DNA from: Pirellulales bacterium
Lineage (GTDB): Bacteria > Planctomycetota > Planctomycetia > Pirellulales > Thermoguttaceae
Length of the DNA: 25,998 nucleotides
NCBI GenBank assembly: GCA_030607895.1
Contig: JAUWJC010000001.1
Coordinates: 1-25,998 of the forward strand
Reading direction: 5' to 3'
A program made the translations under genes and the position numbers. Of the stretch, positions 4,685 to 8,354 are shown in pieces. The notes below the pieces were generated by a model. That model was not told the origin of the DNA and did no database searches. It saw only the letters and a list, made by a program, of their open reading frames with translations. Positions within the stretch are counted from its first letter, which is position 1. Every line of letters begins with the position of its first letter.

Positions 4685-4713
4685 GTGACACCGCAATGGT
4701 AGATCGCTACAAT
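4685..4713 (+). promoter_or_regulatory. Candidate sigma70 promoter for the E1 / lipoyl-FabH unit
   Basis: GTGACA (4685-4690) - 17 nt - TACAAT (4708-4713). Confidence 0.55.
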
Positions 4714-4770: not shown

Positions 4771-6903
4771 GTGGCACCTAATCTGGATACAGGCAGCCTG
4801 GCCGCGTCGCTGCCCGAGCTGCATCCGGCAATATGTCTTGCCGGCGCGACGTTGGCCCAATTGGGGGCCGTTGGCAGCGCGGCATTGAAGCCGCATCCAG
4901 CCTACCCGCTCTCGTCGCCGGCCGTCGTGCGTTTTCCCGGGCGGCTGGCCAAGCCGGAGTTCTACCCGGCCGCCTACACGCTGATGTACCTCTCTCGCCG
5001 GCTGGAAGCGCGGCTGTTGGAGTTGTACGAGAAAGGATACGTGAAAGGGACGGTCACCAGTAGCGCCGGCAACGAGGCGGCGGCGGTGGGGATGTCGATG
5101 CCATACAGGCCGGGCAAAGATATCGTGTCGCTATTGCACCGCGACTTCGCCGCCCATCTGCTTCTAGGCGCCACGCCCTATCAGATGGTCTGTCAGTACA
5201 TGGCCAACGCCGACAGCCCGACGCACGGGCGAGAAGGCAACGCGCATCACGGCGACGCCAACAACCGCCGACTCCCAATGATTAGCCACTTGGGTAAGAT
5301 GCTCAGCCTGGTGGTGGGAGGCACCTGGGCCGCCCGACGACACGGCGGGGAGGCGTTCGGGCTGTCCGTGATCGGCGACGGCGGCAGCAGCACGGGCGAG
5401 TTTCACGAATCGCTGAACCTCGCGTCGGTACACAAGGTGCCGGTGCTGTTTGTGGTGCAGAACAACCACTACTCGTTCTCGACACCTACTTCCGCTCAAT
5501 ACAACTGCCGGCGTCTTTCCGACCGGGCGCAAGGCTACGGCATATCGGGCCGGACCATCGACGGCACCGACGCCTGGGAGGTGTATACGGCCGTCTGCGA
5601 GGCGTTGGACGCCATGCGGGAGAATCCGTTGCCGACGATCCTGGAGTGCATGACCGTTCGCCTGCACGGTCACGCCGCCTACGACAAGGCCGAGTACATT
5701 ACCCAACAGCAAAGGGACCGCTGGCAGGTACGCGATCCGTTGCCCAGCACCCGCCGAAAGCTACAGGAGTTCTGCGGGCGGGGCGAGTCGGACACGGTGT
5801 CGCTGGAGGCGATGGTCGACGAGGAGGTTCAGTCGGCCCTGTCGAAGGCGTTTTTGGTTGCCCGGCCCAAGCCGCCGGTCAAGCGGTCGAGCGTGTTCGC
5901 AAGTTCTTCACCCGCCGCGGTCAAGCCGTACCAGGCCAAAAAGGTGAAGAACGGCACGGCGGTCAATCACGCGTTGGACTACATTCTGGAAAACAACCCC
6001 CGTGCTTTTCTGACCGGTCTGGACGTGGGCACGTACGGCTCGGCGTTCAAAACGTGCAAGGGGCTGATCGATCGGCATGGTGCGGATCGCGTGATCGACA
6101 TGCCCATTTGCGAGTCGGGGACCATGGGGTTCGCCTTGGGGGCGTCGCAGGTGGGCGCCGAGCCGATTGTCGAGTTCCAGTTCGCCGATTTCTCGACCGA
6201 GGCCGTCACGCAACTCGGACTGAACGCGGCCACATGGTACTTCCGCTCCGGTCGACCGGCTCCGCTTCTGGTGCGGCTGCCTTGCGGGGGTGGGCTGACG
6301 ATGGGGGCGTTTCACTCGGGCGAGTTCGAGGGGCTCTGGTCGCGGTTTACGGGCCTGAAGCTGCTCTATCCGGCCACGCCGCAGGAGACCTTCGAAGCGC
6401 TGGTGGCCGGCTATTACGATCGCAACCCCTGCCTGGTGTTCGAACACAAGCTGCTTTATTGGAGCACGAGCGGCGACATCGACTTCGACGGCGACCTGCA
6501 GAGTGTGTGGCGGGCGCGCCGCTACACCGAGGGAACCGACCTGACGCTGGTCGCCATGGGGGCCATGGTGCGCGAGGCGATTTCGGCGGCCGAGAGCTGC
6601 CCGTATTCCGTCGAGGTCTGGAACCCCTTTCTGCTGCAACCGTTGGACCTCTCGCCGATCGTGGAATCGGTAAGAAAGACGGGCCGGTTGATGGTGGTTC
6701 AGGAGTGTGGGGAAACGCAGGGGCTTGGCGACCGGATTATTTCGCTGGTGGTCCGGGCGGACCCGGCCATACTGCGTTGCCGACCCGAGTTGATTTCCGC
6801 TCCGGACGTACCGATCCCATTTGCACCGGAACTGGAATCGTATGGTCGTCCAAGCAACGAGAGTATCCTGGACCGCATCGAGAAGATGCTGAGGGAGAAG
6901 TAG
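4771..6903 (+). CDS. Fused E1 alpha+beta subunit of a TPP-dependent 2-oxoacid dehydrogenase (substrate uncertain; start could be further downstream)
   Basis: TPP motif GDGGSSTGEFHESLN...VVQNN and HGHAAYD in the alpha part. Beta part: DMPICESG, EFQFADF, FHS and PCLVFEHKLLY. Confidence 0.92.
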   Translation: MAPNLDTGSLAASLPELHPAICLAGATLAQLGAVGSAALKPHPAYPLSSPAVVRFPGRLAKPEFYPAAYTLMYLSRRLEARLLELYEKGYVKGTVTSSAGNEAAAVGMSMPYRPGKDIVSLLHRDFAAHLLLGATPYQMVCQYMANADSPTHGREGNAHHGDANNRRLPMISHLGKMLSLVVGGTWAARRHGGEAFGLSVIGDGGSSTGEFHESLNLASVHKVPVLFVVQNNHYSFSTPTSAQYNCRRLSDRAQGYGISGRTIDGTDAWEVYTAVCEALDAMRENPLPTILECMTVRLHGHAAYDKAEYITQQQRDRWQVRDPLPSTRRKLQEFCGRGESDTVSLEAMVDEEVQSALSKAFLVARPKPPVKRSSVFASSSPAAVKPYQAKKVKNGTAVNHALDYILENNPRAFLTGLDVGTYGSAFKTCKGLIDRHGADRVIDMPICESGTMGFALGASQVGAEPIVEFQFADFSTEAVTQLGLNAATWYFRSGRPAPLLVRLPCGGGLTMGAFHSGEFEGLWSRFTGLKLLYPATPQETFEALVAGYYDRNPCLVFEHKLLYWSTSGDIDFDGDLQSVWRARRYTEGTDLTLVAMGAMVREAISAAESCPYSVEVWNPFLLQPLDLSPIVESVRKTGRLMVVQECGETQGLGDRIISLVVRADPAILRCRPELISAPDVPIPFAPELESYGRPSNESILDRIEKMLREK

Positions 6904-8222
6904 TGGAGCAAAGTCCCTTCAAGTTGTCGCTGTATTTGCCCGCTCAAGGGGCCGCCGAGACCGAGGCGACCATCATCGAATGGTACGTGGCCGACTGCGA
7001 CCACTTCGACAAGGGGCAGGTGCTGGCGCAAATCGACAGCGCCAAGTCGGTATTCGATTTCGAGGCGCCTTGCGGGGGGACGTTGATTCGCCTGCTGCAT
7101 CTGGAGGGTGAAACGGTTTCGTTCCGTGAACCGGTGATGGAAATCGAAACTTGCGACAGCAGCATGAAGGACTGGATACCACCCGCCGCCGAAAACATCC
7201 AAGCAGATGCACAACCGGCCGAAATGCCCGGCGTCCGCACCACGCCGACAAACGATAACGGAGCGGTCCTGCTGGGTGTCGGCGGTTACCTTCCCGACCG
7301 GGTGGTCACCAACGCGGAACTGATTAAGGATTTCCCCGAGATCAGCGAGGAATACATCTTCCAAGTCACCGGCATCAGGCAGCGTCGCTGGGCCGCCGAG
7401 GACGAGAAGCCGTCGGACATGGCTTTTGCGGCCTCGCTGGAAGCAATACGCAAGTCGCGGATTGACACCAAGGACATCGACGCCATCATTCTGGCCACCA
7501 CCACACCCGACGTGGCCATGCCGTCCACCGCCTGCATCCTGCAAGATCGACTGAACCTGGGTGGTATTCCAGCCTTCGACCTGAACGCCGCGTGCTCCGG
7601 ATGGCTCTACGCGGTGGCCATGGCCCGGGGAATGATCCTCTCCGCAATGGCACACAACGTCTTGGCCGTCGGGGTCGACATGCAGTCGCGACTCTTGGAC
7701 CGATCCGATCGGAATACCTCGTTCATCTTCGGCGACGGTGCCGGGGCGGAGATTATGTCGGCGGGACACAAGGGCCATCGCATCCGGCAAACTGTCCTGG
7801 GTACCGACGGCAGGGGACTACACATGGCCCGACGCGAAGAGCCCGGATACCTCCTCGCCAACGGCAACGGAAAAGCCGATCCGGCAATTCGCATCGACGG
7901 GCCGGCCCTGTTCCGCTTTGCAACCGAGAGCTTCACCGCGCTGATTCGCCAGACCGTCGCCGGAACCGGGTGGACACTGGACGAAACGAACTGGGTAATC
8001 CCCCATCAAGCGAACTTGAGAATACTCAAGGCGGCGGCCAAACGGTCCGGTATCTCCTTCGACCGATTCTGCATGAACGTCGAGCGGGTCGGAAATACCT
8101 CCAGCGCAAGCATCCCCCTGGCTATCCTCGACGTGGAAGAGAATCTCAAGTCGGGCGACAAGATCGTGCTCTGTTCCGTGGGTGCGGGCGTGACCACCGC
8201 GGCAATTGCCGTCGAGTGGTGA
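6903..8222 (+). CDS. fabH: Lipoyl domain fused to beta-ketoacyl-ACP synthase III (FabH-like), 439 aa
   Basis: GTG start overlaps the E1 TAG (TAGTG) with a GAGGGAG RBS. N-terminal ~80 aa lipoyl fold EATIIEW...IDSAKSV...EAPCGG (K48), an Ala/Pro linker, then KAS III with C231 (AACSG), H368 (PHQAN) and N398 (GNTSSAS). Confidence 0.9.
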   Translation: MEQSPFKLSLYLPAQGAAETEATIIEWYVADCDHFDKGQVLAQIDSAKSVFDFEAPCGGTLIRLLHLEGETVSFREPVMEIETCDSSMKDWIPPAAENIQADAQPAEMPGVRTTPTNDNGAVLLGVGGYLPDRVVTNAELIKDFPEISEEYIFQVTGIRQRRWAAEDEKPSDMAFAASLEAIRKSRIDTKDIDAIILATTTPDVAMPSTACILQDRLNLGGIPAFDLNAACSGWLYAVAMARGMILSAMAHNVLAVGVDMQSRLLDRSDRNTSFIFGDGAGAEIMSAGHKGHRIRQTVLGTDGRGLHMARREEPGYLLANGNGKADPAIRIDGPALFRFATESFTALIRQTVAGTGWTLDETNWVIPHQANLRILKAAAKRSGISFDRFCMNVERVGNTSSASIPLAILDVEENLKSGDKIVLCSVGAGVTTAAIAVEW

Positions 8223-8354
8223 GCCGCATTTCTCACCAACCAGGGACGTACCGAAACAGTGTGCCACTGCTTCGCCAGAAGCAGTGCCGCGAAAACTCTC
8301 GGGAAAACACTGCTTCTAGCGAAGCAGTGGCATACCGTGGTGAGAAATGCGGCT
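8222..8354. mobile_element. 133-bp MITE/REP-doublet-like element with nested inverted repeats
   Basis: Outer 17-bp perfect IR AGCCGCATTTCTCACCA (8222-8238 / 8338-8354). Inner 28-bp IR (8259-8286 / 8308-8335, 2 mismatches); each arm contains a CACTGCTTC-N4-GAAGCAGTG hairpin. Confidence 0.7.

Follow-up and report, generated by a model that had tools for sequence, protein, structure and literature searches.

The two-gene locus and its products

A stretch of 25,998 nt from a Pirellulales bacterium of the family Thermoguttaceae (contig JAUWJC010000001.1; hereafter the window, meaning this stretch at its full length) carries two consecutive genes on the forward strand. The first encodes a fused alpha-beta E1 component of the 2-oxoacid dehydrogenase type; the second encodes a protein in which an N-terminal lipoyl domain is connected by a linker to FabH, also called beta-ketoacyl-acyl carrier protein (ACP) synthase III (KAS III) (Table 1). 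The E1 stop codon (TAG, 6901-6903) and the start codon of the lipoyl-FabH gene (GTG, 6903-6905) overlap by one base, the G being common to both, and the sequence AGGGAG lies 5-6 nt before the GTG. The initial annotation, made from the letters of the window, had proposed that the two genes are translationally coupled and that the second has a ribosome-binding site of its own; the overlap and a Shine-Dalgarno-like sequence are both found.

The E1 protein matches three Pfam families: E1_dh (PF00676, residues 72-360), Transket_pyr (PF02779, residues 391-563) and Transketolase_C (PF02780, residues 582-699), with scores of 179, 92 and 71.4 bits against gathering cut-offs of 22, 27 and 25.9, respectively. 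As all three lie within one open reading frame (ORF) of 710 codons, E1 alpha and E1 beta must be joined in a single chain. The motif for thiamine diphosphate (ThDP), GDG...NN, spans residues 202-232 (GDG202-204, NN231-232); thus, the reading of this gene as a fused E1 with an intact cofactor motif holds. Residues alpha-His301, beta-Glu448 and beta-His515 are also present and, together with the ThDP motif, are kept across the three types of relatives (A, B and C) described below. In E1 enzymes of this kind the beta-Glu activates ThDP, and the alpha-His and beta-His take part in reductive acylation of lipoate. Beta-His515 aligns with H128 beta of the Geobacillus stearothermophilus E1, for which a role as proton donor during transfer of the acyl group to lipoate has been proposed (PMC2663715).

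Assignment of a substrate from similarity to PDB and NCBIfam entries gave an ambiguous answer and was not retained. The alpha part is nearest to structures of the branched-chain 2-oxoacid dehydrogenase (BCKDH) type and the beta part to those of the pyruvate dehydrogenase (PDH) type, and the protein scores under every NCBIfam equivalog cut-off for PDH or BCKDH (188 versus 411 for TIGR03181, 188 versus 394 for TIGR03182 and 181 versus 321 for NF006667). Uncertainty also attaches to the N-terminal extension, or the true start codon, of this gene (window positions 4771-4915, residues 1-48), because most orthologous E1s align from about residue 47-52 only; those of genomes G728, G723, G713 and G719 align from residue 1-3.

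In the lipoyl-FabH protein, Pfam recognizes Biotin_lipoyl (PF00364, residues 12-81; E value 6.9e-10, 39.1 bits versus a cut-off of 22.1), ACP_syn_III and ACP_syn_III_C. As originally described, Lys48 lies in a DSAKS motif and C231, H368 and N398 form the complete Cys-His-Asn triad of a FabH. The FabH domain passes the cut-offs of NCBIfam models NF006829 (322 bits versus 249) and TIGR00747 (294.1 versus 292.1); its best sequence match in the PDB is the Thermus FabH (1ub7) and its top Foldseek match is the FabH of Staphylococcus aureus, with a template modelling (TM) score of 0.93. An AlphaFold2 model of the whole protein has a mean predicted local distance difference test (pLDDT) value of 82.9. 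In this model the FabH domain is confidently placed, residues 95-117 are disordered and residues 6-83 form a beta-sandwich that presents Lys48 in the hairpin between strands 40-46 and 50-54. A biotinyl identity of the N-terminal domain was considered and ruled out by its motif and by NCBIfam matches to the lipoyl regions of E2 proteins.

No peripheral subunit-binding domain (PSBD, PF02817) was matched after the lipoyl domain of the window's protein; this domain is present in the type B relatives P0132 and P0138. Immediately after the lipoyl domain, the segment T-x-D-x-x-M-K/R-D-W-I-P-P-A (window positions 7149-7187, residues 83-95) is nearly invariant in 121 related proteins and is predicted to form a short helix. 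It could be a docking motif standing in for the missing PSBD. Lys48 is itself invariant in the 121 type A proteins, inside the nearly invariant block DSAKSVFDFEAPC, in a protein whose linker (residues ~97-120) varies freely.

Upstream of the E1 gene lies a promoter-like site, and the stop codon of the lipoyl-FabH gene opens a compound hairpin (Table 1) with outer arms of 17 nt (100% complementary) and inner arms of 31 nt (90% complementary). The segment 8220-8360 folds with -89.5 kcal/mol (z = -12.7), a stability equalled in none of 200 shuffled sequences. With the promoter-like site on one side and this stable hairpin on the other, the pair looks like a self-contained bicistronic unit; the hairpin that closes it is probably a terminator or stabilizer, or else a palindromic repeat element. 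Similar palindromic repeat elements were listed elsewhere in the window in the initial annotation.

Table 1. Positions of the genes, domains and putative signals of the two-gene unit (numbering of the window).
Feature	Position	Strand	Details
Sigma-70-like promoter candidate, GTGACA-17-TACAAT	4685..4713	+	10/12 consensus matches; 58 nt before E1 start; consensus match only
Fused E1 alpha-beta gene	4771..6903	+	710 aa; alpha part ~4984-5850, beta part ~5941-6867; from Pfam domains
Shine-Dalgarno-like GAGGGAG before lipoyl-FabH gene	6891..6897	+	Read from sequence
Lipoyl-linker-FabH fusion gene	6903..8222	+	439 aa; from Pfam, NCBIfam, PDB match and AlphaFold2 model
Lipoyl domain, residues 6-83	6918..7151	+	PF00364; K48 codon AAG 7044-7046
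Pro/Ala-rich flexible linker, residues 95-117	7185..7253	+	pLDDT <50; sequence variable in family, flanks conserved
FabH (KAS III) domain, residues 120-439	7260..8219	+	Codons: C231 7593-7595, H368 8004-8006, N398 8094-8096
Compound hairpin, ~135 nt, from lipoyl-FabH stop codon onward	8220..8354	+	Arms 8222-8238/8338-8354 and 8256-8286/8308-8338

The window has ~61% G+C. Its genes have a planctomycete-like cast (MoxR, DUF58, BatA and a giant PQQ/TPR protein), and those flanking the module encode a tryptophanyl-tRNA synthetase, an RraA-like protein, a dihydrodipicolinate synthase and an HU-like protein and are not part of it.

Relatives of the module in other genomes

A search of a collection of 5.8 billion proteins yielded more than 120 full-length relatives of the lipoyl-FabH protein, 67-99% identical to it and sharing its three Pfam domains. 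Those that carry a name belong to metagenome-assembled genomes (MAGs) of Thermoguttaceae, Pirellulales or Planctomycetes and are annotated merely as 'beta-ketoacyl-ACP synthase 3'. The architecture is common to all 121 family members, and the fused E1 lies directly upstream in each of the 13 species-representative loci that have a full-length homologue. These figures dispose of the concern, raised at the outset, that the fusion might be a one-off or an assembly chimera.

Whole-genome searches were carried out on samples of genomes, many of which are incomplete MAGs. They indicate that this two-gene form (type A) is essentially limited to the window's own family: no full-length lipoyl-FabH was found in any other genome among 400 sampled from the phylum, and among 300 genomes taken from the order, the N-terminal 132 residues were strongly matched in the family only (18 of its 32 genomes). 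When the family was sampled with one genome per genus, the module appeared in 39 of 60 genera. An orthologous E1, 58-86% identical to the window's, adjoins the lipoyl-FabH gene on the same contig in 38 of these 39. The two genes are on different contigs in G458, an assembly of 530 contigs; the E1 of G628 runs into a contig end, and G724 yielded no E1.

When the flanking ORFs of 45 loci were clustered all against all, no conserved third gene emerged: apart from the module itself, the clusters reflected alternate-frame artefacts or lineage-local synteny. Outside the module, the neighbourhoods also differ in the gene tables of three carriers, of which two are near-identical. Judging from this linkage, E1 and lipoyl-FabH appear to be inherited as a unit.

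Two variations on the E1 gene were seen. In one Planctomycetota MAG (L022:6723-6910) the E1 match is split, the alpha part running to residue 368 and the beta part starting at residue 387, ~190 nt apart; this may be an unfused or interrupted form, upstream of the same lipoyl-FabH. Two related genomes have, next to a canonical E2 catalytic domain, a further fused E1 alpha-beta (G704:C730:1497-4339 and G727:C200:1052-4304), a paralogue with ~30% identity to that of the window. Fusion of alpha to beta is hence not in itself a mark of the FabH module.

To delineate the wider family, HMMER was run exhaustively against 1.84 billion cluster representatives, and Pfam scans followed. Two further architectures emerged. 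In type B, a fused E1 is followed by a protein with the order lipoyl, E3_binding (PSBD), FabH; it is represented by six Spirochaetota loci and one Opitutaceae protein. In this intermediate form the domains are ordered as in an E2, with KAS III standing where the catalytic core would be. In type C, a single chain of 1100-1195 residues contains E1_dh, Transket_pyr, Transketolase_C, Biotin_lipoyl and FabH. Type C occurs as an uninterrupted ORF in 29 species-representative loci, the sources being Gloeobacterales cyanobacteria, Pirellulales/Pirellulaceae, 'Candidatus Anammoximicrobium', Verrucomicrobiota, Kiritimatiellales/Pontiella and one Burkholderiales MAG. One cluster representative, WP_218080544.1, is from a cultured cyanobacterium, Anthocerotibacter panamensis. 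Thus, a search for the combination of Biotin_lipoyl and ACP_syn_III, which had been suggested as a check, uncovers a large conserved family that is either adjacent to or fused with E1 alpha-beta and never associated with an E2 core.

Identity to the window's proteins is 43-50% (E1) and 38-44% (FabH) in type B, and ~24-31% (E1) and 28-36% (FabH) in type C. The similarity of the two partners declines in parallel from type to type, a pattern that joint inheritance of the pair would be expected to produce. A maximum-likelihood tree was built from 94 FabH domains; by its SH-aLRT support values, the type C domains are monophyletic (98), types A and B cluster (88) and all lipoyl-linked forms group together (85) along with a few probably truncated 'stand-alone' entries. 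The single-chain proteins constitute Rosetta-stone evidence, at the level of sequence, that E1, lipoyl domain and FabH are likely to be functionally coupled. FabH fusions of another kind also turned up: P0241, P0258 and P0272 (552-703 aa) have one or two AfsA-type hotdog domains N-terminal to FabH and are unrelated to the lipoyl module.

Active-site residues, partners and the proposed acyl transfer

Residues were mapped to the numbering of Escherichia coli FabH in 46 lipoyl-linked proteins of types A, B and C and in 45 stand-alone FabHs. The lipoyl lysine is invariant in all 46 across the three architectures; type C proteins have it in the motifs EADKA and EATKS, and the MKM motif of biotinyl domains occurs in none. 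Every lipoyl-linked form has Cys112, His244, Asn274 and Arg249, and within type A the triad is complete in 121 of 121 proteins. Arg249 of the E. coli enzyme is said to be an ACP-docking residue, as reportedly described by Zhang et al. in 2001.

A different pattern is seen where CoA (coenzyme A) would bind. In ordinary FabH the adenine of CoA is stacked between Trp32 and Arg151 and hydrogen-bonded to Thr28, and Arg36 forms a hydrogen bond with the pantetheine arm (PMC4606726). The stand-alone FabHs largely keep these residues (Trp32 in 43, Arg151 in 41, Thr28 in 38 and Arg36 in 42 of the 45). In types A and B, Tyr stands for Trp32, Val for Arg36 and Ile for Thr28; within type A, Tyr at 32 is found in 121/121 proteins and Val at 36 in 120/121. 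The window's FabH, having Ile, Tyr, Arg and Val at positions 28, 32, 151 and 36, does not conform to an acyl-CoA primer site. A stand-alone FabH paralogue encoded in the same genome retains Trp32, Arg36 and Phe87. In type C, Trp32 is replaced by Asp or Ala, Arg151 by Phe, Pro, Leu or Gln, and Thr28 by Trp or Met. The adenine clamp has been dismantled differently in two lineages that both keep the catalytic residues and Arg249, as expected if the primer donor is no longer an acyl-CoA.

From the protein sequences and the structural model, the two genes probably specify a module in which KAS III substitutes for the acyltransferase core that E2 supplies to a 2-oxoacid dehydrogenase, with predicted CoA-independent priming. 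The exchange of the E2 catalytic domain for KAS III had been suggested from the window; it gains computational support from the domain order of type B and from the lack of an E2 core with any member of the family.

The following sequence of reactions is envisaged. E1 alpha-beta would decarboxylate a 2-oxoacid on ThDP, the candidates being pyruvate, 2-oxobutyrate or a branched-chain 2-oxoacid, and would reductively pass the acyl group to a lipoyl moiety presumed to be carried by Lys48 of the FabH fusion. The resulting S-acyl-dihydrolipoyl arm, borne on the ~25-35-residue disordered linker, would enter the primer tunnel of FabH instead of the pantetheine arm of an acyl-CoA and acylate Cys231 by direct thioester exchange. 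FabH would then condense the acyl group with malonyl-ACP to form a 3-ketoacyl-ACP, which would proceed into type II, presumably bulk, fatty-acid synthesis. Finally, the dihydrolipoyl group would be reoxidized in trans by the dihydrolipoyl dehydrogenase (Lpd) of the genome.

More broadly, types A, B and C may represent an undescribed multienzyme class: a ketosynthase would serve as the acceptor core of a 2-oxoacid dehydrogenase, its Cys being acylated by the acyl-dihydrolipoyl arm with no acyl-CoA intermediate, and the class would be spread over Planctomycetota, Verrucomicrobiota, Kiritimatiellota, Spirochaetota and basal cyanobacteria in two-gene and single-chain forms. We put the probability of this proposal at roughly 0.55.

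The resemblance of type B to an E2 can also be taken to mean that the FabH domain is a transacylase rather than a condensing enzyme, moving the acyl group from the lipoyl arm through Cys231 to holo-ACP or CoA and leaving condensation to another ketosynthase. Stand-alone FabHs of the same genomes could fill the latter role, and FabH enzymes have an intrinsic acyl-CoA:ACP transacylase activity. We consider this scheme unlikely, however. His244 and Asn274, which in FabH serve malonyl decarboxylation and condensation and not transacylation, are invariant in the 46 lipoyl-linked proteins, whereas KAS III-like pure acyltransferases usually have an altered triad; furthermore, the domain passes the NCBIfam cut-offs for FabH. 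Condensation by the lipoyl-linked FabH itself is thus the course that we favour.

The proposed relay calls for lipoylation and for an E3. A domain scan of the window found neither an E2 catalytic domain nor an E3, in agreement with what had been noted before. The initial annotation had further stated that an E3 would have to act in trans, and an Lpd gene is indeed present elsewhere in the genome, on contig C500 (TIGR01350, 453 bits versus a cut-off of 408.8). Contig C202 encodes a LipB-LipA fusion (L115:1071-2960, minus strand), a single 629-aa ORF combining a LipB-type octanoyltransferase domain with the lipoyl synthase LipA; two further LplA/LipB-type genes and GcvH are encoded in the same genome. 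After the LipB-LipA fusion lies an 85-aa ORF (L115:742-999, minus strand) with a weak Biotin_lipoyl match and no NCBIfam match.

In the window's assembly (G000), a MAG of 655 contigs that is 74% complete, the window's E1 is the sole PF00676 protein found, and there is no match to PF00198, the E2 catalytic domain, or to aceE. A PDH operon is either unassembled here or lacking from the lineage, as it may be lacking from G712, G717 and G728. These three module carriers, 93-95% complete, have no PF00198 match. Lack of E2 was considered as a general rule for carriers and had to be abandoned: many have an aceE-E2-lpd operon, and the rule holds for G712, G717, G728 and the window's 74%-complete assembly.

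An E2 catalytic domain occurs somewhere in 41 of the 60 sampled genomes of the family. This raises the question of whether the true partner of the module's E1 is a canonical E2 encoded elsewhere, in which case the lipoyl-FabH would take acyl-CoA, as the Arg151 kept in type A might suggest, and its N-terminal domain would be biotinyl or no more than an appendage for docking or regulation. Where examined, however, canonical E2 lies in an aceE-E2-lpd operon (G644, G581) or beside its own separate E1 alpha gene (G571, G581). G440 and G644 have no PF00676 E1 besides that of the module and, as noted above, the carriers G712, G717 and G728 have no E2 match. Taken together, these observations make a hidden canonical E2 partner unlikely. 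Single-chain fusions in several phyla, replacement of the CoA adenine clamp and an invariant lysine in a lipoyl-like motif (EADKA/EATKS in type C) rather than the biotin MKM also go against this explanation, to which we accord very little probability. Direct loading of FabH by the lipoyl arm remains the preferred reading with respect to the E2 question.

What the relay serves is a separate matter. The low scores of E1 against all PDH and BCKDH equivalogs, the accessory and patchy character of the module, and a FabH pocket that differs from that of E. coli (F87M, L142Q and F304V in the window's protein) would suit the same E1-lipoyl-KAS III chain working for a specialized lipid or secondary metabolite, or an E1 that cleaves something other than a simple 2-oxoacid, such as an acetoin- or ketose-type donor, as in acetoin dehydrogenase or QncN/QncL. 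Against this, no genes for polyketide synthases, nonribosomal peptide synthetases (NRPS) or tailoring enzymes are conserved beside the module in the 45 loci, the flanks differ between genomes, and the FabH domain is closest to housekeeping FabHs in both sequence and fold. A specialized product or an unusual donor therefore appears improbable to us, and a role in starting fatty-acid chains is the one we prefer.

Several observations weigh against CoA-independent priming as proposed, or limit its reach. Arg151 is retained in type A and Arg36 in type C, so that in each type only some of the CoA contacts are lost. DSAKS differs from E(T/S)DKA, the canonical lipoyl motif, and resembles the motif of H-protein. 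The window's type has no PSBD to account for the recruitment of E1 and E3. LipA, GcvH and Lpd are found in 52, 57 and 54 of the 60 family genomes, with or without the module; being near-universal, they are permissive and not diagnostic, and the attempt to use their phyletic co-occurrence with the module as a test of lipoylation gave no discrimination. The module was not found in 21 of the 60 sampled genera of the family. Lastly, canonical stand-alone FabHs coexist with it in the window's genome, which has three FabH-type genes of this kind, and in five other carrier genomes examined; hence, the module is not essential for fatty-acid initiation. This coexistence and the patchy presence in the family make an accessory initiator for a particular primer more likely than a sole starter.

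Comparison with known systems

To our knowledge, the E2 of a textbook 2-oxoacid dehydrogenase invariably delivers the acyl group to CoA, and dependence on acyl-CoA is part of how FabH, as an initiator, is defined. Full-text literature searching found no description of the E1-lipoyl-FabH architecture, and public annotations say just 'beta-ketoacyl-ACP synthase 3' or '2-oxoisovalerate dehydrogenase E1 component'; the module is conserved and apparently unstudied. If the proposal is correct, it would establish a new connection from central carbon or amino-acid catabolism to lipid synthesis and a new acceptor chemistry for lipoyl domains. The module could account for a choice of fatty-acid primers that, in some bacteria, does not depend on the acyl-CoA pool, and its two parts might be engineered into a compact tool for producing branched or odd-chain fatty acids out of 2-oxoacids. 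The size of the family and its cultured member, A. panamensis, make the proposal directly testable.

Functionally, the nearest known arrangement is that of bacteria with branched-chain fatty acids (Bacillus, Staphylococcus, Listeria), where the Bkd complex of E1 alpha/beta, E2 and E3 feeds FabH. Like that system, the module has an E1 alpha/beta dependent on ThDP and would work with a lipoyl swinging arm; reoxidation would likewise fall to E3, and FabH would likewise use the acyl group so produced to start fatty-acid chains. In the Bkd system, however, the acyl group is moved by E2 onto CoA, and the acyl-CoA is used by a FabH that is a separate protein. The module has no E2 catalytic core, its lipoyl domain is fused to FabH, its E1 is one chain and the CoA adenine contacts are replaced.

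Set beside the E2 of PDH or BCKDH (lipoyl-PSBD-core), the window's protein likewise has at its N terminus a lipoyl domain whose lysine sits in a hairpin, with a Pro/Ala-rich linker after it, and type B keeps the PSBD as well. It differs in ending with a KAS III of the thiolase fold, not a CAT-like 24- or 60-mer core, and in having no PSBD. Known FabHs are dimeric. With FabH/KAS III enzymes (Thermus thermophilus 1ub7, S. aureus 3il7 and 1zow, E. coli 1hn9) the protein shares the NCBIfam assignment, the fold (TM 0.93), the triad and the equivalent of Arg249; unlike them, it bears 119 N-terminal residues of lipoyl domain and linker, and has Tyr for Trp32, Val for Arg36 and Met for Phe87. In terms of class features, the module displays those of E1, of a lipoyl domain and of KAS III catalysis, and fails to display those of an E2 core, a PSBD and an acyl-CoA site.

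The single chains of the WP_218080544.1 type, annotated just as 'beta-ketoacyl-ACP synthase 3', have the same three parts in the same order with the same invariant residues, and belong to a related FabH clade. They differ in being one polypeptide, ~24-36% identical, that has lost Arg151 and Trp32 and kept Arg36; no characterization of such proteins was found in the literature. A further parallel comes from quinocarcin and naphthyridinomycin biosynthesis, where, as reportedly described by Peng et al. in PNAS in 2012, an E1-like ThDP enzyme loads a lipoyl domain (QncN/QncL/QncM; NapB/NapD). In that system the acyl unit goes to a carrier-protein pathway rather than to CoA, as would be the case here; however, it keeps an E2-type acyltransferase domain, uses a ketose donor, feeds an NRPS and has no fused ketosynthase. 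In conclusion, the parts of the module and their chemistry are familiar; it is the proposed acceptor of the lipoyl arm that is unfamiliar.

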